A stretch of DNA of 64,000 nucleotides from Oscillospiraceae bacterium (GCA_015064845.1 SVRL01000002.1:10508-74507); one strand, 5' to 3'; shown: positions 18,502 to 28,155, numbered from the stretch's first letter. Translations and numbers: made by a program. The notes: generated by a model from the sequence alone, not told the origin.

Positions 18502-18530
18502 TTGCAAAAAAGAGGGTTGTATGATATACT
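18502..18530 (+). promoter_or_regulatory. Promoter of the LytTR regulator/kinase genes
   Basis: TTGCAA (18502-18507), 17-bp spacer, TGaTATACT (-10 at 18525-18530). Confidence 0.55.
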
Positions 18531-18559
18531 GAAAACAATTGAAACGATTGGAGAGACAT

Positions 18560-19261
18560 ATGAGATTCAATATTGCAGTCTGCGATGATGAACGGGAGCA
18601 GGCAGAAAAAATAACCTCCGTTGTGAAGTCTTGGAGTGAGAAGGAAGGTCATCGGTGCGAATTTAGCACGTTTTCTTCTTCCGAAGAATTTCTTTTTGAA
18701 TATGAAAGCGACCGTTCCTACGATATTTTGCTTCTGGATGTTGAAATGGGGGATATTTCGGGAATTTCGCTTGCGAAAAGGATACGAAAGGAAAATAACC
18801 GCGCGGAAATTATTTTTATAACCTCTCATTTCGAATTTATCGGCGAAGGTTATGAAGTGGATGCCTTGCACTATCTTGTGAAGCCGATTTCCAAAGCAAA
18901 GCTTTGCGCGGTTCTTTCCAAGGCTGCGGAAAAGCTTTCCGTTGAACCTCCGTCCGTTGTTATTACTTGTGACGGAGAAACCGTCAAACTTTACGAATCT
19001 GAAATTTTATATGTGGAATCCTTTTTGCATTATATCGCTATTCATACGAAAGATAAAGAATATAAGATCAAAGAAAGCATTTCTGTTTTTGAGAAAAAAA
19101 TGAGTGAAGATTTTTTTCGGGCGCACCGTTCTTATCTCGTCTCCTTAAAACATATTGCGCGGATTTCACGCACCTGCGTTATATTGGACGATCGAACGGA
19201 GCTTCCATTGGCAAGAGGGAAATACAATGAAATCAACCGTGTGTTTATCGAACGCAATTAG
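18560..19261 (+). CDS. LytR/AlgR (LytTR) family response regulator
   Basis: 233 aa from the ATG after GGAGAG. Has a receiver domain (IAVCDDE...LLLDVEM) and a C-terminal LytTR DNA-binding domain (YVESFLHYIAIHT...FFRAHRSYLV). Confidence 0.9.
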   Translation: MRFNIAVCDDEREQAEKITSVVKSWSEKEGHRCEFSTFSSSEEFLFEYESDRSYDILLLDVEMGDISGISLAKRIRKENNRAEIIFITSHFEFIGEGYEVDALHYLVKPISKAKLCAVLSKAAEKLSVEPPSVVITCDGETVKLYESEILYVESFLHYIAIHTKDKEYKIKESISVFEKKMSEDFFRAHRSYLVSLKHIARISRTCVILDDRTELPLARGKYNEINRVFIERN

Positions 19262-19270
19262 AGGAAAAAT

Positions 19271-19921
19271 ATGAGAAAGAAAACTTATTTGAAGCTTGTG
19301 GAATATCAAACGGAACAATCCGAAAAGCATCTCATGGAGGTGAGGAGCATCCACAAAGAAATGAGAGGCTACAAGCATGATTTTCACCACCATTTGCAAA
19401 CCTTGAAAGGTCAACTTGAAGCAGGGGAAATTGACCGCGCGCTTGCTTATATCGAACAGCTTGACCGTCAGTTGATGAATATGGATACGCTTCTCAAAAC
19501 GGGAAACGTATCTTTGGATGCTATTTTATCGGCGAAGATCTCACAGGCAAAAGCGGAAAATATTGCCGTTACGGTAAAAGCAAATGTGCCGGATTCCTTA
19601 ACCGTTTCGGATGTGGAATTGAGTATTATCATCGGAAACCTTTTGGACAATGCCATTGAAGCCTGTCGGATAGCGAAGGGAGATCGGTTTATCCGCATTT
19701 ATATGGCGATGAAAGGGAATATGCTGTATTTTTCCATGCTGAACACTTCCGGCGAAAAGAAGAAAAAGAAAGGCTCTTTATTCTCTTCCCATAAGGATGG
19801 CGTACACGGCTTCGGGCTTCGGCGTGCGGAAGCCATTTTGCATGAACACGGGGGATGGGTAAAATATAACAGCGAGGACGGTGCCTTTACTTCGGAATTT
19901 TTGGTGCCCGCCGTAGAATAA
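19271..19921 (+). CDS. AgrC/HPK10-type GHKL histidine kinase lacking any membrane or sensor domain
   Basis: 216 aa. Has H-box GYKHDFHHHL, N-box IIGNLLDNAIEA and G-box HGFGL. No hydrophobic segment is present, and only 9 nt separate it from the regulator gene. Confidence 0.85.
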   Translation: MRKKTYLKLVEYQTEQSEKHLMEVRSIHKEMRGYKHDFHHHLQTLKGQLEAGEIDRALAYIEQLDRQLMNMDTLLKTGNVSLDAILSAKISQAKAENIAVTVKANVPDSLTVSDVELSIIIGNLLDNAIEACRIAKGDRFIRIYMAMKGNMLYFSMLNTSGEKKKKKGSLFSSHKDGVHGFGLRRAEAILHEHGGWVKYNSEDGAFTSEFLVPAVE

Positions 19922-19924
19922 TTT

Positions 19925-19959
19925 GCAATTCGTGCACGAAAAAATGCGATTCGTGCACG
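19925..19959 (+). promoter_or_regulatory. Direct-repeat operator, predicted LytTR binding site
   Basis: GCAATTCGTGCACG (19925-19938) and GCGATTCGTGCACG (19946-19959), start-to-start 21 bp, ending 3 bp before the -35. Confidence 0.5.
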
Positions 19960-19962
19960 TTT

Positions 19963-19991
19963 TTGTTTTTTTCATTTTTTCATGCTATACT
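19963..19991 (+). promoter_or_regulatory. Activator-type promoter of the ABC exporter pair
   Basis: Weak -35 TTGTTT (19963-19968), 17-bp spacer, TGcTATACT (-10 at 19986-19991). Confidence 0.45.
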
Positions 19992-20027
19992 AAAGATGCA
20001 AAAACACATCCAAAGGAGGTATTTGAT

Positions 20028-21866
20028 TTGAAAAAGAACATGAAAAAGAAACCATACCGTTCCGTATTCAGTAATGCGATATGGGCATTTCGCCATCAAC
20101 TGAAATTTGCGCCGAAGTCATTTTTGCTTTTGATGTTGGGAATTCCGCTTGCCGTTGCGCAAAGCTATATGGGGATTCTGTTGCCTTCTCTTGTTGTAAA
20201 AGAAGTAACGGCAGGTTCTGCACTCACAAACGTGGCTGTCAGCGTAGGATTGCTTATGCTCTCGATTTTCCTTTGCAAAATGCTTGGACAGGCTTTTTCC
20301 TATATGCAGGAAGGATATCTTTCGAATTACCGCTGGAGTATTTCGGAAATAATCGATCAAAAAGCACTCGGCTGTTTCTATCAGCAATTTGAGAAAAAAG
20401 AAGTGCGAGACCTTCATGAGCGGGCAACGAAAACGACGCAAATGTGGAACGGCGTACAGCCGATTTCGGATATGCCGAGGTACACAGCGGAACTGATTAT
20501 CAACGTACTGAGCTATCTTTTGTTTGGTTCGGTGGTTTCATTGGTTCATCCGCTTCTCGTTCCGATCTTGACGGTTGCTCCTATTGTAAACTGGGTTTGC
20601 GTACGCGCTTACAATAAATGGGAATATGCCAATCGGGATAAATGGACGGATACTTCCCGTAAGCTTTGGTACGTGCGGACGAAGCCTGCCGACTTTGCGG
20701 CAGGAAAGGATATTCGGCTTTACGGTATGATGGACTGGTTTATCGATATGTTCAAGTCCTTAAACCGTGAATACGCGGTATGGGATAAACAGCGCGTCGG
20801 ACGAAAGTTTCTCTCCGGAATTGCGAATCTCTTCATTATTCTTATCCGAGACGGCGCTGCTTATGTGCTTTTGATTGCAATGACGCTTCGCGGCGAAATT
20901 ACCGTAGATGAATTTGTTTTATATTTTGCCGCCATTTCTTCTTTTGCGGGCTTTATCGGGGGAATTCTCGGAAGTTGGAATCATTTGCAAGCCACAAGTC
21001 TTTCTCTTTGCGATTTACGTGAATTTCTGGATTTGCCCGAATATGACGGAACGGGAGAAGAATCGATCACGGAGCATTTGGCGTATGCGCCCGAAATTAC
21101 CTTTGACCATGTTTCCTTTCGATATGACGGCGCAGAAAACGATACGCTTCATGAGATTTCCTTTACTGTGAAAGCGGGCGAAAAAATTGCTCTTGTCGGA
21201 TTGAACGGTGCCGGTAAAACAACCATTGTCAAGCTTTTGTGCGGACTTTATACGCCAACCTCCGGCGAAATTCGTTTGAATGGGATTCCTCTTTCCAAAT
21301 TTTTGAGAAAAGATTACTATAAGCTTTTTTCTCCCGTATTTCAAAATATCAAAACGGCTTATTTTTCTTTGGGAGAAACGGTTTCCGGAGTCGTTGGAAA
21401 AGATTATGACCGTGAAAAAGCAGAATTATGTATGCGCCGCGCAGGATTGGGAGAAAAACTGGAGTCTTTACCTATGGGGCTTGACACAAAACTCGATAAA
21501 CAGGTCAACGAAAACGGCATTGAGCTTTCGGGAGGCGAATTGCAGAAAATGATGCTTGCCAGAGCGCTTTATAAGGATGCGCCAATGCTGGTACTGGACG
21601 AACCGACAGCGGCGCTGGACCCCATTGCGGAAAGTGAAATTTATCAACAATATCAAAGCATGACAAGCGGAAAAAGCGCTGTTTTTATCTCCCATCGTTT
21701 GGCTTCTACTCGTTTTTGCGACAGAATTCTATATCTTGAAAACGGAAAGATCACGGAAGAGGGTACACATGAAACTTTGATGCATAAAAAGGGACGGTAT
21801 GCAGAGCTTTTCGATATTCAAAGCTGTTGGTATCGGGATGATTTCGGAAAGGAGAATATGAAATGA
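20028..21866 (+). CDS. ABC exporter, fused permease/ATPase (heterodimer subunit 1)
   Basis: AGGAGG (20014-20019) lies 8 nt upstream of an in-frame TTG at 20028 (alternative ATG at 20040). Has six TM segments, then Walker A GLNGAGKT, signature LSGGE and Walker B LVLDEP. Confidence 0.9.
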   Translation: MKKNMKKKPYRSVFSNAIWAFRHQLKFAPKSFLLLMLGIPLAVAQSYMGILLPSLVVKEVTAGSALTNVAVSVGLLMLSIFLCKMLGQAFSYMQEGYLSNYRWSISEIIDQKALGCFYQQFEKKEVRDLHERATKTTQMWNGVQPISDMPRYTAELIINVLSYLLFGSVVSLVHPLLVPILTVAPIVNWVCVRAYNKWEYANRDKWTDTSRKLWYVRTKPADFAAGKDIRLYGMMDWFIDMFKSLNREYAVWDKQRVGRKFLSGIANLFIILIRDGAAYVLLIAMTLRGEITVDEFVLYFAAISSFAGFIGGILGSWNHLQATSLSLCDLREFLDLPEYDGTGEESITEHLAYAPEITFDHVSFRYDGAENDTLHEISFTVKAGEKIALVGLNGAGKTTIVKLLCGLYTPTSGEIRLNGIPLSKFLRKDYYKLFSPVFQNIKTAYFSLGETVSGVVGKDYDREKAELCMRRAGLGEKLESLPMGLDTKLDKQVNENGIELSGGELQKMMLARALYKDAPMLVLDEPTAALDPIAESEIYQQYQSMTSGKSAVFISHRLASTRFCDRILYLENGKITEEGTHETLMHKKGRYAELFDIQSCWYRDDFGKENMK

Positions 21867-23686
21867 AGCTCAGAGAACATATTTCCATTGCAAAACGCGC
21901 CGTAAAAATGGTGTTTAGCCAAAGTAAGGCGTTTGCCGTTTGTACGATGCTGAATGCTTTTCTTGCGGCAATTATGCCTTATGTTCCGATTTGGTTTTCC
22001 GCTGAACTGATCGATGCGCTTTTTGCAAAAGCGCCCGTAGAAACTCTGATTTTCTATGTGATGCTTACGGTTGGCACGGTATTTTTACTTCAACTTTTGA
22101 AAACTTATGTCTCTCATCAAAAAGATATTTCTTCCTCGGTCATATATCGTATGGAGGATTGGCAATATGCGGAAAAAGCAATGAAAATGGCATATGAATC
22201 CATTGAAAGCAGAGATGTGCAGCTGCTTAGAAACCGCATTCGCATGGAGACACAGACGGGATATAATCGCTTTTATCTTCATATGTGTATGGAATATGCG
22301 GTACGCTATACCACGGAGATTGTTTGTTCTCTTGCACTTACGGTTTCTTTTTTTACGAACCAAACGATTCCGCTTTATATGAAGCTCGGTCTGCTGGCGC
22401 TTCTTACCTTGACCATTGTCTGCAATATCGTATTGACGGCAAAGCAGAAAAAGGAGGACGGGAATTTTTTTGAGGATAACGTGGTCATGATGAATACGGT
22501 CGGAGAAAAATATTCTCAATATATTGGAGATTACAGCGCAGGCATGGATATCCGTCTTTATCAGATGACGGAGGATATTGTGGAAAGTCAGAGTCGCTTA
22601 AATCGGGAACATACGAAAAAAAGTCTTTTGCTTTACAAAAAAATGACGGCGTTATCCATACCTCAAGTGTTTTTGAATCATGCTTTGCAATATATGACGT
22701 ACCTTGTTTTGATCGTTGGAGCAATCGCTGGCGGTATTTCCGTCGGTTCGATTGCAAAATACGTGTCTTGTATCATGATGATGCTGACTTCCATTTCCAA
22801 ATTGGTTACCATGTTTCAGATTTCCATCGTGAATGACGGTTATCTGAAAAGGTATTTTTCTTATTTTGATATTCCGAACAAGATGTATCAAGGGTCGCTT
22901 ACCGTTGAAAAACGCGACGATAACGAATATTATGTGGAATTCAGAGATGTATCTTTCAAATATCCCAACAGCGATGTTTGGGCGCTCCGTCACGTCAATT
23001 TAAAATTTAAGATAGGAGAAAAGCTGGCGGTTGTCGGCATGAACGGTTCGGGAAAAACCACGTTTATCAAGCTTCTTTGCCGTCTTTACGATCCAACCGA
23101 AGGCGAAATTCTTCTCAACGGTGTCAATATCAAAAAATATGATTATGATGAATATATGTCTGTTTTTTCCGTTGTTTTTCAGGATTACCGTTTATTTGCC
23201 TTTACCCTCGGACAAAACGTGGCGGCGAATACGGATTATGATGAAGAGCGCGTGAAGCATTGTTTGCATCAAGCAGGCTTCAAGGAGCGTTTGGAAACCT
23301 TGCCGAACGGTACGGAAACGTATCTTTTCAAGAATTATGATAAAAACGGCATTGAATTTTCGGGCGGAGAAACGCAGAAAATTGCGTTGGCAAGAGCGCT
23401 TTACAAAGATGCACCGTTCATCATTCTGGATGAACCCACAGCCGCGCTGGATCCTGTTTCCGAATATGAGGTTTACAGTAACTTTAATCGGATTTCGGGA
23501 GAAAAGACTGCGATTTATATCAGCCACAGGCTTGCTTCCTGCCGTTTTTGCGATAAGATTGCCGTGTTTGACCACGGTGAAATTATCCAAAGCGGTTCAC
23601 ATGATACGCTCGTTGACGATAAAAAAGGCAAATATTACGAATTATGGCGTGCACAAGCACAGTATTATACAGAACAAACGGTATAA
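21863..23686 (+). CDS. ABC exporter, fused permease/ATPase (heterodimer subunit 2)
   Basis: ATGA start/stop overlap with subunit 1. Has Walker A GMNGSGKT, signature FSGGE and Walker B IILDEP. Confidence 0.9.
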   Translation: MKLREHISIAKRAVKMVFSQSKAFAVCTMLNAFLAAIMPYVPIWFSAELIDALFAKAPVETLIFYVMLTVGTVFLLQLLKTYVSHQKDISSSVIYRMEDWQYAEKAMKMAYESIESRDVQLLRNRIRMETQTGYNRFYLHMCMEYAVRYTTEIVCSLALTVSFFTNQTIPLYMKLGLLALLTLTIVCNIVLTAKQKKEDGNFFEDNVVMMNTVGEKYSQYIGDYSAGMDIRLYQMTEDIVESQSRLNREHTKKSLLLYKKMTALSIPQVFLNHALQYMTYLVLIVGAIAGGISVGSIAKYVSCIMMMLTSISKLVTMFQISIVNDGYLKRYFSYFDIPNKMYQGSLTVEKRDDNEYYVEFRDVSFKYPNSDVWALRHVNLKFKIGEKLAVVGMNGSGKTTFIKLLCRLYDPTEGEILLNGVNIKKYDYDEYMSVFSVVFQDYRLFAFTLGQNVAANTDYDEERVKHCLHQAGFKERLETLPNGTETYLFKNYDKNGIEFSGGETQKIALARALYKDAPFIILDEPTAALDPVSEYEVYSNFNRISGEKTAIYISHRLASCRFCDKIAVFDHGEIIQSGSHDTLVDDKKGKYYELWRAQAQYYTEQTV

Positions 23687-23697
23687 ATGACTCCCAA

Positions 23698-23743
23698 AAA
23701 GCTTGGATAATCGGAAAAAGACGGTTATCCAAGCTTATTTTTT
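23698..23743 (+). terminator. Rho-independent terminator of the ABC operon
   Basis: 13-bp stem aaagcttggataa / ttatccaagcttt, followed by TTTTTT. Confidence 0.85.
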
Positions 23744-23753
23744 AAAAATACTC

Positions 23754-23782
23754 TTGACAGCGTAACAATGTTATGCTATACT
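23754..23782 (+). promoter_or_regulatory. Consensus sigma-A promoter of the yhbD-like operon
   Basis: TTGACA (23754-23759), 17-bp spacer, TATACT (23777-23782). Confidence 0.65.
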
Positions 23783-23803
23783 GTAATCGTAACAATGTTA
23801 CGC
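23761..23803 (+). promoter_or_regulatory. Twin palindromic operators
   Basis: CGTAACAATGTTATGC (23761-23776, inside the promoter spacer) and CGTAACAATGTTACGC (23788-23803, just after the -10). The second contains the perfect 7-1-7 palindrome CGTAACA-A-TGTTACG. Confidence 0.5.
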
Positions 23804-23822: not shown

Positions 23823-24230
23823 ATGGGAAATGAAAATCTGATTTCAAAAAAAGAACTGCTGGAGCGGTATCACATTTCCTACGGAGCGTTATACCGTTGG
23901 AAAAGAAAGGGGCTTATTCCCGACGAGTGGTTTCTGAAAAAAGCAACGGCAACGGGGCAGGAAACCTTTTTTCCCGAAAAGCTTGTGTGTGAAAGAATCG
24001 AACGGATTCAAAGCATGAAAGAGGATATTCTTCTGGATGAGCTTGCCAAACAGTTTTCGGGAGAAGAAAAGAAAAACGAATTTTTGGTTTTACAAACGGA
24101 ATTCGGAGAAAAAAGTTTTCGTATGTGTGATGTGAAATCCATCGCTTTGACGGACAAAAACGGGAAAACGAGGGATATTACGGATTTGATTCAAAAAATA
24201 TTGGAAGAAATTGACGGAGGTAAGGTATGA
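23823..24230 (+). CDS. MerR-like HTH protein, YhbD/DUF4004 family
   Basis: 135 aa. [45 protein letters not shown] closely resembles B. subtilis YhbD as I recall it. Confidence 0.8.
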
Positions 24231-24967
24231 ACATTTCGGGAAGCGGATATATCCCCGCAGGGGAATACAATGAAAACATTTCTATCAGCGGAAGCGGTAA
24301 AATCAACGGCAATTTGCGTTGTTTATCGATTTCCTGTTCCGGCTCCACAAAATCAGAAGGCAGCGTGTTTTGTAACGGGGACTTCAAATGCTCCAGTTCG
24401 GCTCATCTTAAAAAAGAATTACACGCAAAAAATATTACTACAAGCGGTTCTCTTCGGGTGGAAGACAATATTTTCTGCGAAAATATTGTCCGTGTTGCGG
24501 GAGGTATGGTTTGCAAAGGCAAATTGAAATCCGGTTCGGTTAGTTGCGCCGGAAGCATTGAGATTTCGGGAGATCTGGAAGCGGAAGAGTTTAAGTCGGC
24601 AGGAAAACTGATCTGCGGAGGTCTGCTGAATGCCGAAAAGATCAGTATTTCTCTTGACGGCACGAGCGGAAGCGTCGGCAGTATCGGAGGAAGTGAGATC
24701 AAGATTTACTGGGACCCGAAGAAACCCCGATCAAAAAAACTCGGTCGTATGCCCTTGTTTTCCAAATTGGTCAATGAAGGCACCGGCTGTTTCGTTGTTG
24801 AAGAACAGATCGAAGGCGATATGGTGGCAATCGAATGTGTGAAAACGCCGAAAGTTGTCGGCAGAGTGGTTGCGATCGGCGCAGATTGCGAAATTGACCT
24901 TGTGCAATACACCGAAGAAATTGAAGTACATCCCGATGCCAAGGTCGGTAAGATTGAAAAAATATAA
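24227..24967 (+). CDS. Bactofilin-like polymer-forming (beta-helical repeat) protein
   Basis: ATGA overlap with the yhbD-like gene. Has Gly/Ser-rich short beta-strand repeats ([35 protein letters not shown]). The synteny mirrors yhbD-yhbE-yhbF. Confidence 0.65.
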
Positions 24968-25035: not shown

Positions 25036-27537
25036 TTACCAAGGACGATTATGGCTTTCGTCATAACGAAACATAGCGATGTGTTCCGAGGTTAATTCAT
25101 TTGTGTGTCTGTAGCCGCGTATGTAGTAATAAAAATCTTCCCTATATATATAAATGGTTTCGTATTTGTATAAGTGTTGCATGAATTCAGAAGAAGGTTC
25201 AGCGCTTGCAGAGACGGCTTCTTCTGATAGAATTTGGTCAAATGTTTTCCCAAAATGTTCAGGTAATAAAACATCTCCGCCGGCATTGGCAGATGCCATT
25301 TTATATTCTGAAATATTGTCGTCCAAATCTCCTGCAAAGACAAAAATTACATTTTCAAATTCCGGAACAACTACATTCATAGCTATCGGACTTTGTGCCG
25401 TTATTTTGTATTGGGGATATATAGCGTTAAATTCACTCCATGTGTATTGTTGCTGTAAAATATCATTCAAAATTACGGACAATGAGCTGTTTTGAGACGA
25501 AGAAGTGTTGTTTTGCAAAGAAATAAATTCTAAAAATTTGTTACCTTTTGTTTTTTCGGCGGCTTCCTTTATGGAGATGTACGGTTTGGATGAGGATAAC
25601 TCATCGAATTTTTCTTTGCCGATGGATATTTTGTCGGAATCGGAAATCATATAATACATATTTTGTTGATTGATAGAATCATATCCTTCGGAGCCGTACT
25701 CAAATATCAAATTCAGCTTTGTTCCGTCTGCGGAAAGCGTATATTCCGAATATGACCAATGGTCTGCTCCGTTGCTGCCGCATACGTGCAGGATTTTATC
25801 ATTGTCAATCCAACAGCTTTTTCGGGAATGAAAGTCATCCAGCATAAACGGGTTTCCGTAAACCATTGAAAAAACAGATAAAATCGTACCGTCATCCAGT
25901 AATAAAACCAATTCCGATTCGCCATCTCCGTTTAAATCACAGAATGCGTATCCGTAAGTGTTTTCCGATACGTTGCCAATCAGCGTTGCGCCGTAAAGCT
26001 CCGTATACCACTTTTGAGAAAAGTCAGCATTTCCGCTTTCCGTCGGGTTTTGATGGTTATGAACGATCTCTTTGTACATCTCTATTATCGAATCATATGG
26101 ATTTGTTTTTGCCGTTGTTGTGATGTTTGTATTTTCCGATTTCATTGTAAAAAGCCAGTTTGCTCCGCTTTGTATATATTTTGCATTTGATTTTTCTACC
26201 GTTACATAGATACTGTTATCCCTAAAATCAATTTTGCCGGAAATACGGTTCCAGTCATCCTTAAATGAAATTTCCCCGTCTTTTACCGTTAGGTTCAAGT
26301 AAAAAGTAGTCAATCTATAGATACCTAATTGACATTTGATTTCGCCGTTATCTTGGGGAATAACGGTGAAATCATGCGGCGGGTTGAAATCGTCATACCA
26401 CGTTCCGATATATTTTTCAAAAGAAAACGCCTCAGATTTTATTGCTCCATCGCTTGACGATGATAGCTTCTTTATTTCAAATTTAAAGTTGTCTGTGTTG
26501 TTGCCTGCAACGACGTATCCAACGGAACCGTTATAAAGAATTTTGTGCCAAGTGTATCCGGTTGCCGTTGCGCAATTTTTTTCAAGTATTTCTACGGTGT
26601 CCCCTTTATGTAGTTTTCCAAGACTTTTAAAGCTGGTTCCTGCTTCGGAACGAACATTTAGTGTATCAACGTCAACAAGGGTTCCGTACTCAACATAATT
26701 GCCGAGATATTTCGACATTTCATTGGTTTGCATTTGTTGAGGTATTGCAGGAACAAATGGGATGCCGGATTTTTTTGTTGTGGCGGTCGGATATTGTAAG
26801 AAAATATCATAACGATCTTTCAGGTGTGTTATTTCGTGTACCGTTGCAACACGTTTTACCTCATTTTCAATGATATAATATTCGCAGTTTACATCATCGT
26901 ATCCATATTCAAGTAAGGTTTCAAGTTCTCCGCGATTTGTGATTTGCATTATTTTTGTGTATGAATTTTCTCCTTTCCCATATCCGGTTTTATAGAATAT
27001 TCCATTTTGATCCAATGAAACATAATGATTATTGAAAGAAAACTGATCGAGCAATACGGGTATTTCGTTCATTTGTGTGAAAACGGCATAAATATGGTAC
27101 TGATCGTCCATTAAAATTAATTCTGTTTGAGTGTCACCATTAATATCATAAATGGCATAACCCATCTGAGTTTGGTTTCTATGTGAATTAATCACAAGGG
27201 ATTGTAAAGCCGTTTCTATTGTATAATCATTTGTATCAAAGTACTCTCCGATGGTATGAGTAGCCTCTTCATTATGTTCGTTTGAAAGCAAAATTCGATA
27301 TCTCTTCAAAATATCATCGTAACTATGAAACTTTACTTTTTTTGAAATGTTATCTTCGAGTAAGAGACTGTAGTCATTTTTTACCATTTGTATCGCGTCA
27401 ATTTCAAAATTCGTTTCTGTGGACAACTGAGAATCGGTTGAATTTTCCGAATGAATGCTATCTTTATGATTACAAGAAGTTGCCGTGCTAAGCACCGCAC
27501 AGCAAAGTAAAACGGATAATACTGTTTTTTTGTTCAT
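25036..27537 (-). CDS. Large lipoprotein with an SH3b domain flanked by two homologous FG-GAP/VCBS-like modules
   Basis: 833 aa from the ATG at 27537 (GGAGGA 7 nt upstream). The signal sequence with lipobox is LLCCAVLSTATS-C. The SH3b-like stretch is LNVRSEAGTSFKSLGKLHKGDTVEIL. Paired motifs are AIYDINGDTQTELILMDD and AFCDLNGDGESELVLLLDD. Confidence 0.8.
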   Translation of the reverse strand: MNKKTVLSVLLCCAVLSTATSCNHKDSIHSENSTDSQLSTETNFEIDAIQMVKNDYSLLLEDNISKKVKFHSYDDILKRYRILLSNEHNEEATHTIGEYFDTNDYTIETALQSLVINSHRNQTQMGYAIYDINGDTQTELILMDDQYHIYAVFTQMNEIPVLLDQFSFNNHYVSLDQNGIFYKTGYGKGENSYTKIMQITNRGELETLLEYGYDDVNCEYYIIENEVKRVATVHEITHLKDRYDIFLQYPTATTKKSGIPFVPAIPQQMQTNEMSKYLGNYVEYGTLVDVDTLNVRSEAGTSFKSLGKLHKGDTVEILEKNCATATGYTWHKILYNGSVGYVVAGNNTDNFKFEIKKLSSSSDGAIKSEAFSFEKYIGTWYDDFNPPHDFTVIPQDNGEIKCQLGIYRLTTFYLNLTVKDGEISFKDDWNRISGKIDFRDNSIYVTVEKSNAKYIQSGANWLFTMKSENTNITTTAKTNPYDSIIEMYKEIVHNHQNPTESGNADFSQKWYTELYGATLIGNVSENTYGYAFCDLNGDGESELVLLLDDGTILSVFSMVYGNPFMLDDFHSRKSCWIDNDKILHVCGSNGADHWSYSEYTLSADGTKLNLIFEYGSEGYDSINQQNMYYMISDSDKISIGKEKFDELSSSKPYISIKEAAEKTKGNKFLEFISLQNNTSSSQNSSLSVILNDILQQQYTWSEFNAIYPQYKITAQSPIAMNVVVPEFENVIFVFAGDLDDNISEYKMASANAGGDVLLPEHFGKTFDQILSEEAVSASAEPSSEFMQHLYKYETIYIYREDFYYYIRGYRHTNELTSEHIAMFRYDESHNRPW

Positions 27538-27636
27538 TTTTTCCTCCATTTATTTTTCTTTTATTTTGAGTATGATAGAAAACTTCTAAAAATCAGTTCT
27601 TGAAAATGAATTTTATTGTTGAACTGCACAAAATTC

Positions 27637-27665
27637 ATTCTATCATAGAACTAAATGAAATGCAA
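27637..27665 (-). promoter_or_regulatory. Promoter of the lipoprotein gene with an overlapping palindromic operator
   Basis: On the minus strand: TTGCAT (27665-27660), 17-bp spacer, TAGAAT (27642-27637). The palindrome TTCTAT-C-ATAGAA (27638-27650) overlaps the -10. Confidence 0.5.
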
Positions 27666-27802
27666 GAAAAAGAGAATTTTTTTAAAAAATATTAAATTTT
27701 GAAAATAAATAGCGAGGACACCGATTTTAGAATCGTGCTCTTCGGTACCGCCTTCTGTTTCTTGACAAGGAGAAATTGTTGCAAGCCCAAAAAGAATGAT
27801 TG

Positions 27803-27832
27803 TTGCCGTCAAGATGAAAAAACGAGTAAAAT
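27803..27832 (+). promoter_or_regulatory. Possible promoter of the XRE regulator gene
   Basis: TTGCCG (27803-27808), 18-bp spacer, TAAAAT (27827-27832). This is a weak match. Confidence 0.35.
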
Positions 27833-27912
27833 TTTAATTTTTTCAGAAAATCCTCCTGAAAATTTAGATAAAAAATCAAGATTCTTATCTTTAACATATT
27901 TTTGGAGGATTT

Positions 27913-28155
27913 ATGAAAATTTACGATTATAACGGAAAAAAGAATATTTGCGGCGAACGTGTTCACGAAGCTCGCAACCGTCAACATTTGACACAGAACG
28001 ATTTGGCAGCACGGTTACAGGTTGCGGGGATAACTATCGAAAGAGACAGTATATCTCGTATCGAAATAGGGACACGTTTTGTTGCTGACTATGAATTGCG
28101 GGAGCTTGCCAAACTCTTAAATGTATCTGTGGATTGGCTTTTGGGGATACAGTAA
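27913..28155 (+). CDS. XRE-family HTH transcriptional regulator (80 aa)
   Basis: GERVHEARNRQHLTQNDLAARLQVAGITIERDSISRIEIG is a canonical HTH_3 domain. SD GGAGG. Confidence 0.85.
   Translation: MKIYDYNGKKNICGERVHEARNRQHLTQNDLAARLQVAGITIERDSISRIEIGTRFVADYELRELAKLLNVSVDWLLGIQ

Follow-up and report, generated by a model that had tools for sequence, protein, structure and literature searches.

The window analysed in this study is a stretch of 64,000 nucleotides from an Oscillospiraceae bacterium (GCA_015064845.1 SVRL01000002.1:10508-74507). The open reading frame (ORF) listing and profile searches showed four co-directional genes in it, which encode a LytTR response regulator, an AgrC-type histidine kinase that lacks a membrane sensor, and two half-exporters of the ATP-binding cassette (ABC) class, named ABC1 and ABC2. 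An earlier note on this DNA had listed the same order (LytTR regulator, 216-residue kinase, two half-ABC genes, terminator), and all of these elements were found where it had placed them, including the strong terminator with its 15-bp stem and T-run. The coordinates are listed in Table 1. The locus is a self-contained four-gene export cassette.

Table 1. Features of the four-gene cassette, in positions of the 64-kb window.
Feature	Position	Strand	Basis or detail
Promoter-like site of the regulator-kinase operon	18502..18530	+	sigma-70-type, TTGCAA-17-TGnTATACT
Response regulator, 233 aa, receiver and LytTR DNA-binding domain	18560..19261	+	Pfam PF00072, PF04397
Soluble AgrC-type (HPK10) histidine kinase, 216 aa	19271..19921	+	Pfam, hydropathy, AlphaFold model, fold search
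Direct repeat pair, inferred binding site of the LytTR regulator	19924..19959	+	repeat analysis, conserved position and period
Terminator-like RNA hairpin formed by the repeat cores, with U-run	19931..19972	+	inverted-repeat complementarity, folding energy
Extended -10 element TGCTATACT, promoter of the ABC operon	19983..19991	+	sequence; related loci
ABC1 half-transporter, ~612 aa, membrane domain and nucleotide-binding domain	20028..21866	+	profile matches, hydropathy
ABC2 half-transporter, 607 aa	21863..23686	+	profile matches; ATGA overlap with ABC1
Intrinsic terminator at the cassette end, 15-bp stem, 8-nt loop, T-run	23699..23746	+	sequence

The kinase matches Pfam SPOB_a, the dimerization and histidine phosphotransfer (DHp) domain of SpoOB/DcuS/AgrC type, at residues 18-76 (E 1.7e-10) and HATPase_c_5 (PF14501) at residues 114-212 (E 2.6e-18). 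By sequence, the closest solved structure is the kinase module of Staphylococcus aureus AgrC (6e52, E 4.5e-9), and the top fold matches of the kinase model are the same module (6e95/6e52). The H-box YKHDFHHHL (with His36), the N-box GNLLDNAIEA and the G-box HGFGL are intact. The H-box aligns with RHDYVN of AgrC, and H36, D37, N123, N127, G180 and G182 are invariant in an alignment of 19 kinase relatives. The Pfam matches, motifs and model bear out the earlier description of a kinase made only of DHp and catalytic (CA) domains with H-, N- and G-boxes. In the clade of kinases to which that of the window belongs, the residue before the phospho-accepting His is Lys35 (YKHDFHHH, 19373-19396, residues 35-42), whereas it is Arg elsewhere (WRHDYHNH), and the H-box is unusually rich in His.

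No hydrophobic segment is present in the kinase. Its peak 19-residue Kyte-Doolittle mean is 1.16, compared with 1.6-2.3 in the membrane helices of the ABC proteins; transmembrane (TM) calls in this study come from this hydropathy window rather than from a dedicated TM predictor. The AlphaFold model (pLDDT 83.5) contains two helices, a long one (residues 2-50) and a shorter one (54-71), followed by an alpha/beta catalytic domain, and nothing more. Hydropathy and model thus agree with the earlier note that the kinase lacks a hydrophobic segment. Approximately 17 residues precede the DHp helix, and the regulator stop codon is separated from the kinase ATG by the reported 9 nt, with a ribosome-binding site (RBS) for the kinase. 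On this model, the kinase has no room for any input domain. The statement that five to seven TM segments are normal for this class holds for characterised members, whereas forms with no TM segment or one are common for this cassette family in sequence databases. Among the marks of the AgrC/HPK10 family, the H-box, the catalytic domain and the adjacent LytTR regulator are present, and the N-terminal polytopic sensor is absent. In the alignment, the N-terminus of the kinase falls at the junction of the last TM helix and the linker helix of its polytopic and one-TM relatives. In AgrC, twisting of this linker by the membrane sensor sets kinase activity, the state of linker and latch controls the cytoplasmic module, and Arg238 forms the "latch" that keeps AgrC in its off state (PMC6755735).

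The regulator has a receiver and a LytTR domain (Pfam E 7e-17 and 8e-19, respectively). Its acidic pocket (CDDE), acceptor Asp (LLLDVEM) and conserved Lys (LVKP) are all intact. ATG 18560 is the likely start codon, with the RBS GGAGAG before it and the promoter-like site upstream; TTG 18539 is an unlikely start. ABC1 probably starts at TTG 20028, which has GGAGG 8 nt upstream, or at ATG 20040. Both ABC proteins contain PF00005, have their hydrophobic segments within the N-terminal 300 residues and match ABCB/MsbA-like (type IV) exporters. All NCBIfam matches were far under the family cut-offs, and no curated family was reached. GxxGxGKT, SGGE, LDEPT and SHRL are conserved in both proteins. The ATP sites are both canonical: Walker B Glu and H-loop His are kept across the cassette family. 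Many positions of the nucleotide-binding domain (NBD) are family-specific and nearly invariant; conserved stretches of this kind in ABC2 include EKRDD..Y..EF, IKKYDYDEY and GKYYELW.AQAQYY. The half-transporter genes are adjacent, with all NBD motifs of heterodimeric type IV exporters, and ABC2 is translationally coupled to ABC1 through the ATGA overlap already recorded in the earlier note. We infer that ABC1 and ABC2 form a heterodimer.

The four-gene order recurs in approximately 150 loci from species genomes and metagenomes of gut Clostridia. Because the loci were picked by similarity to the queries, the frequencies of architectures among them do not estimate those of populations; many come from metagenome bins, the taxonomic labels of which may be wrong. 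A species-genome scan with a 6-sequence kinase alignment, one genome per species, gave 575 confirmed kinase matches. The best 80 of these 575 loci belong to Lachnospiraceae, Oscillospiraceae, Ruminococcaceae and unclassified Clostridia. Nearly all of the 80 with enough flank have the order regulator, kinase, ABC1 and ABC2, even at 42-47% kinase identity, and the same order recurs in the metagenome loci. The gene-neighbourhood survey that the earlier note had proposed therefore shows very strong co-occurrence of the TM-less kinase with the ABC pair. None of the other neighbours of the cassette in the window is conserved beside it in the 80 species loci. Kinase relatives in the database number thousands, and their names are only generic (GHKL domain protein, AgrC, CitS). 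The 120 closest clusters share 88-100% identity, and single clusters occur on up to 514 contigs.

The kinases of the best 80 species loci are TM-less in 76 cases and have one TM segment in 4. At 35-45% identity, in a library clustered at 50% identity, relatives of three architectures were found: TM-less kinases of 210-225 aa, kinases of approximately 236-255 aa with one N-terminal TM segment, and polytopic kinases of 320-450 aa. A scan seeded with polytopic relatives showed that kinases with 3-6, one and no TM segments share the identical four-gene order. The TM-less form is not a local accident, because all three forms occupy the same cassette, and the membrane part is therefore dispensable while the linkage to the ABC pair is kept. 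A neighbour-joining tree of the kinase modules, rough and built on biased sampling, contains at least four switches between zero and one or more TM segments. The data indicate that the TM-less kinase is a recurrent, stable reduction and that ABC linkage is ancestral to the family. One relative, P0143 (441 aa), joins a receiver domain, a short membrane segment and an AgrC-type kinase module in a single polypeptide.

The longer relatives with 3-6 TM segments in the same cassette type could also suggest that the short kinase is a decaying, functionless remnant of a membrane kinase. We give this idea practically no weight. Of the 120 closest clusters, 116 retain the length of 216 aa and all catalytic motifs, as do 76 of the 80 species loci, the gene follows the regulator at 9 nt with its own RBS, and no gene of the cassette is more conserved.

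The kinase and ABC1 genes are separated by a spacer of 106 nt. It contains two 15-nt direct repeats, TGC(A/G)ATTCGTGCACG, at 19924-19938 and 19945-19959, exactly 21 bp from start to start. The motif is unique within the window, and counted from the ABC promoter the pair covers approximately -74 to -39. Next comes an extended -10 element, TGCTATACT, 26 nt past the repeats. The internal promoter of the earlier note is thus present as this extended -10 and lacks a recognisable -35. A promoter without a -35 is typical of activator dependence, and paired direct repeats two helical turns apart before a weak promoter are a hallmark of LytTR regulators such as AgrA and ComE. The spacer shows the layout of a LytTR-regulated promoter (repeats of 9-13 bp, a spacer of ~12 bp, a poor -35), and the site is a predicted one. 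In related loci, a repeat pair of 21-bp period recurs in the spacer, approximately 27-28 nt before a TG-extended -10. The repeat sequence is clade-specific (GCAATTCGTGCAC, ATTCGTCCCC, CATTTCGTTCAC, TTGACATCAAA) and the period is kept. For 43 of the 93 loci, 21 is the exact period of the best repeat (at least 9 of 10 positions matching), whereas any other period is best in at most 2 of the 93 and shuffled spacers gave 1. A conserved period with a co-varying sequence is the prediction for a regulator and its operator, and this argues strongly that the phosphorylated regulator would activate the exporter genes via the repeat pair. One locus (L071) has five copies of the 21-bp operator unit AACGATTCGTCCCCCAAAAAG in tandem rather than two.

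The repeat core TTCGTGCACGAA is palindromic, and the two copies can pair in RNA. The arms 19931-19940 and 19950-19959 are 100% complementary and form a 10-bp stem that closes a 9-nt loop, with a U-run downstream. The folding energy is -17.7 kcal/mol, with a z-score of only -1.4 against shuffles, which is not exceptional. Because of this z-score, we propose only tentatively that the hairpin terminates the regulator-kinase transcript, or insulates it from the ABC operon. In other clades, hairpins with T-runs, formed from the second repeat and a downstream arm, were seen by eye. A single sequence may serve as operator and insulator. Upstream of the regulator gene of the window, no match to the LytTR-type repeat motif was found, and no enrichment of 21-bp-period repeats was detected upstream of the regulator gene in the 93 loci. 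Since these repeats are absent there, the regulator-kinase promoter is probably constitutive and not autoregulated.

The components of a pheromone system were also searched for. Profile searches of the neighbours and of the ABC proteins gave no AgrB/AgrD-like gene, C39 peptidase domain or bacteriocin-like gene near the cassette, in line with the earlier statement that no autoinducing peptide or bacteriocin precursor and no agrB-like gene lie nearby. No precursor-like small ORF was found at the window locus. Clustering of 4419 flank ORFs from 93 complete cassettes, 3.5 kb on each side, gave no fifth conserved gene or small ORF; the sole recurring flank ORFs were scattered generic ABC ATPases in 17 of the 93 loci. 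A few loci have inserts between kinase and ABC1, and these are unrelated cargo. The insert of L014 and L018 (10779-11126) is a 115-aa ORF (MKLIYAIVERDNAERVTDALN...), which we take to be PII-like. These results bear on the idea of a reduced peptide quorum-sensing or bacteriocin system, in which the ABC pair would export a peptide that is re-imported and sensed in the cytoplasm. ComDE-ComAB and BlpRH-BlpAB are pheromone systems next to ABC exporters. AgrC-type kinase/LytTR pairs beside ABC exporters are classically of this kind (family: PMC8895600). However, with neither precursor, AgrB, C39 peptidase domain nor a small gene conserved in or around the cassettes, with inserts that are only cargo, and with a kinase devoid of a peptide-binding domain, we consider such a system highly improbable here.

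The signal could instead be brought by a partner encoded elsewhere, such as a detached AgrC-like membrane domain, a LiaF/SaeP-type accessory protein or a Sda/PII-type inhibitor. Accessory proteins typically control input-less kinases, as in LiaS-LiaF, NtrB-PII and KinA-Sda, and the related one-TM kinases look membrane-anchored and could meet a partner in the membrane. However, tblastn of the membrane parts of 44 related multi-TM kinases against the 64-kb window returned only noise, and the 3.5-kb flanks of the 93 cassettes contain no conserved accessory gene. The separately encoded membrane sensor, which the earlier note had regarded as fatal to its proposal, was found neither in the window nor in these flanks, and a second refuting condition of that note, a lack of conserved co-occurrence of kinase and ABC pair, did not apply either. 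The many genomic contexts and taxa in which the cassette occurs also disfavour an unlinked partner, and we regard it as rather improbable.

The conservation of the parts was compared across the 93 cassettes. Mean pairwise identity was 0.49 for the kinase, 0.41 for the regulator, 0.52 for the NBD of ABC1 and 0.62 for the NBD of ABC2, and only 0.23-0.24 for the membrane domains of ABC1 and ABC2. At 45% identity, the kinases fall into 3 clusters, the regulators into 19 and the ABC proteins into 21-24. These values show the kinase to be under strong constraint and to be the most conserved gene of the cassette, and the ABC2 NBD to be the most conserved part of the transporter and of the whole cassette. 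Whole-protein mirror-tree values over all loci were 0.74-0.95 for every gene pair, high because of the deep clade structure. They were uninformative, and distances were therefore compared domain by domain inside single clades. For the window clade, the kinase distances follow those of the regulator (Mantel r 0.67) and of the ABC2 NBD (r 0.47, p 0.0002), but show no correlation with those of the ABC1 NBD (r 0.02) and hardly any with those of the membrane domains (r 0.14-0.17). The four genes and their parts all co-diverge in two other groups (r 0.74-0.90). Such distance correlations cannot separate co-evolution from operon co-inheritance.

We strongly infer that the cassette is self-contained and that a LytTR/AgrC-type phosphorelay switches on the exporter from a promoter with a LytTR box. 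A kinase that lacks an input domain would have to be controlled by a partner protein or not at all. The exporter is the likeliest source of the signal, because it is the only conserved companion across the versions with no, one and several TM segments; that the kinase reads its activity state is our leading suggestion, a little short of probable. The exporter subunits are the only partners conserved with the kinase, and the kinase therefore most likely docks on them. In the proposed mechanism, a constitutive promoter would express the regulator and the soluble kinase, which consists of the DHp and CA domains only, and the partner would set the balance of its kinase and phosphatase activities. 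The kinase would dock on the cytoplasmic face of the exporter, with the NBD of ABC2 as the best candidate site, and convert transport activity into phosphorylation of the regulator. The phosphorylated regulator would bind the 21-bp-period repeats and activate the -35-less extended -10 promoter, which would drive the heterodimeric type IV exporter, while the repeat hairpin would limit read-through from the regulator-kinase operon. The outcome would be a need-based positive feedback as in Bce modules, built in the cytoplasm from unrelated parts. Substrate choice would lie with the membrane domains, which diverge fast, and the substrates would probably be antimicrobial peptides or other gut compounds that are toxic. 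Activation of kinases by ABC transporter cycling has precedents (PMC4513084, PMC10314905). The full proposal is that an input-less kinase docks on an exporter NBD, likeliest that of ABC2, and passes the ATPase or transport cycle on to the LytTR regulator; that this cytoplasmic flux sensing arose repeatedly by loss of the AgrC-type sensor; and that one conserved signalling pair serves interchangeable exporters of different substrates across gut Clostridia. We put this forward as a tentative scheme that is more doubtful than probable.

Several points weigh against the exporter as the sensor. Like the other functions proposed for the cassette, the contact between kinase and exporter is deduced from sequence. 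In the Bce module the contact is made by TM helices (PMC10314905), which cannot apply to a TM-less kinase. In the window clade, ABC pairs of three clusters, with membrane domains ~21% identical, have replaced one another, while the kinases stay 85-89% identical. For example, L001 shares 89% identity with the window in the kinase, 21% in the membrane domains of both ABC1 and ABC2, and 77% in the ABC2 NBD. Since the ABC proteins are swapped under a constant kinase, a specific interface with the substrate-binding part is unlikely, and docking on a conserved NBD raises the problem of cross-talk with the other ABC exporters of the cell. Genes of one operon co-diverge through plain co-inheritance too. 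The terminator-like hairpin would lower the basal exporter level that a flux sensor needs, and an isolated AgrC-type module could be constitutively active. As for the exchange itself, L001, L002, L006, L007, L009 and L013 share 78-89% identity with the window in the kinase, 69-77% in the ABC2 NBD and approximately 20-50% in ABC1 and the ABC2 membrane domain. It seems that ABC1 and the membrane domain of ABC2 were replaced and the ABC2 ATPase domain was spared, which is a mosaic at the level of domains.

A further possibility is that the kinase acts alone, either as a constitutive phosphodonor or with a DHp/CA core that responds to a cytoplasmic cue, and that the exporter is only the output. 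Candidate cues are pH (through the His-rich H-box, HDFHHH), the ATP/ADP ratio and a drug inside the cell. The much stronger conservation of the kinase than of the transporter, and its persistence through ABC swaps, would suit a universal cytoplasmic cue, and the structural neighbours in the fold search include HK853 structures titled pH-gated conformational switch. The linker/latch control of AgrC activity described above (PMC6755735) is also relevant, the position of the latch Arg being Lys35 in the window clade. However, the 216-aa protein has two helices before the CA domain and no ligand-binding domain. A constitutive kinase would make the pair pointless, yet intact motifs are retained in hundreds of species, and the tight, exclusive linkage to one kind of ABC pair would be left unexplained. 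We consider a kinase acting alone unlikely, and continue with the exporter as the favoured source of the signal.

The nearest parallel in logic is the Bce module of Bacillus subtilis and relatives (BceRS-BceAB). In both, a two-component system lies beside the ABC transporter that it induces, the kinase has no ligand-binding domain, and the regulator has its site at the promoter of the transporter rather than at that of its own gene. In Bce modules the transporter is the real sensor (PMC4513084, PMC10314905), and the same flux-sensing logic is proposed for the cassette. Its genes co-diverge in the two groups outside the window clade, as operon co-inheritance would also produce. The parts are different. 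The Bce regulator is of the OmpR family rather than LytTR. Its kinase is an intramembrane protein with two TM segments and a HAMP domain, whereas that of the cassette is of the AgrC/HPK10 type with neither TM segment nor HAMP. The Bce transporter consists of the ATPase BceA and the 10-TM BceB with a large extracellular domain, whereas the cassette encodes fused half-transporters, membrane domain and NBD together, of ~610 aa. In transporter type, kinase type and regulator family the cassette is therefore not a Bce module. Unlike in Bce modules, the ABC pair is swapped within the window clade, and the TM-helix coupling of BceAB to BceS is impossible (PMC10314905).

AgrCA, ComDE, BlpRH and FsrCA share with the cassette the kinase module, the regulator family and a promoter with paired direct repeats. 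Their polytopic sensor, pheromone precursor, and AgrB or C39 peptidase-ABC exporter are missing in the cassette; the neighbour domains and the search for conserved small ORFs in the 93 cassettes showed nothing of the precursor and processing or export genes of an agr, com or blp locus. Their outputs are virulence, competence and bacteriocin genes, whereas the cassette controls a drug-type ABC exporter. In PhoR-PhoU-PstSCAB and NtrB-PII, the kinase reads the state of a cytoplasmic protein rather than a stimulus, which resembles the logic proposed here, and in the Pho system this state is the activity of an ABC transporter, read via its ATPase and PhoU. PhoR, which is anchored in the membrane, and NtrB receive their partner through PAS or other N-terminal domains. 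The cassette kinase, in contrast, has only ~17 residues before DHp, and its transporter is an exporter and the regulated output. In NatKR-NatAB of B. subtilis, a LytTR two-component system adjoins the ABC efflux system that it controls, as in the cassette. NatK is a membrane kinase, and NatAB consists of an ATPase and a separate permease (type V-like), unlike the half-transporters of the cassette.

The exporter resembles BmrCD, LmrCD, PatAB, EfrCD and TM287/288, which are likewise encoded by adjacent, coupled half-transporter genes and have an ABCB/MsbA-like fold. Many heterodimeric exporters of Firmicutes have one degenerate ATP site, whereas the cassette keeps both. Attenuation or one-component repressors control these exporters, which are not known to depend on a dedicated two-component system. 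The LytTR Regulatory Systems HdrRM and BrsRM combine a receiver-less LytTR regulator with a co-transcribed membrane inhibitor and no kinase (PMC6193735). The cassette does not match this type, since its regulator has a receiver with an intact acceptor site and is followed by a kinase. In the literature searched, neither a TM-less kinase of the AgrC type nor a heterodimeric ABC exporter under LytTR control is described, and the earlier note had also stated that it knew of no characterised example; such absence is not proof. The cassette appears to be an uncharacterised and very widespread variant of the transporter-linked two-component detoxification module.

The taxonomic distribution of the cassette is broad. 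Kinases 74-89% identical to that of the window (L001-L045) come from bins labelled Acetatifactor, Faecalimonas, Lachnospiraceae, Oscillospiraceae, Ruminococcaceae, Muribaculaceae and Paludibacteraceae, and a one-TM relative at 44% identity (L067) was found in a Treponema bin. This scatter suggests that the regulator-kinase unit has spread horizontally, that some binning is wrong, or both. Neither an integrase nor a transposase is a conserved neighbour of the cassette. Among the carriers is a cultured one, 'Bacterium D16-50' (L026). In plasmid records, the only matches were distant ones (at most 31% identity) to ordinary membrane kinases, with no sign of a plasmid-borne cassette.

Downstream of the cassette terminator, the promoter of a DUF4004 gene (TTGACA-17-TGnTATACT, 23754-23782) overlaps copies of CGTAACAATGTTAYGC at 23761-23776 and 23788-23803. 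Each CGTAACAATGTTAYGC copy contains the palindrome TAACAATGTTA, and the repeats resemble an operator for autoregulation. A bactofilin-like gene (24227-24967) has its start within the DUF4004 gene (23823-24230), and neither is conserved beside the cassette elsewhere. The G+C content is 0.34 at 26001-28000, compared with ~0.44 across the rest of the window; this stretch lies at the end of an 837-aa minus-strand ORF (25036-27549).

Two-component kinases are normally viewed as sensors. For a highly conserved kinase that is only a catalytic core and is invariably linked to a single kind of pump, one has to ask at which point a signal comes in. Should the pump act as the sensor, need-based flux sensing would not be peculiar to Bce modules and could also operate via the cytoplasmic ATPase domains of ABCB-type exporters, a large class that includes multidrug pumps. 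With four genes, one promoter and one operator, the cassette is small and could easily be reused as a sensor-actuator module. The cassette is abundant in gut Clostridia of humans and animals, and may therefore shape the resistance of these commensals to antimicrobial peptides, bile compounds and drugs.

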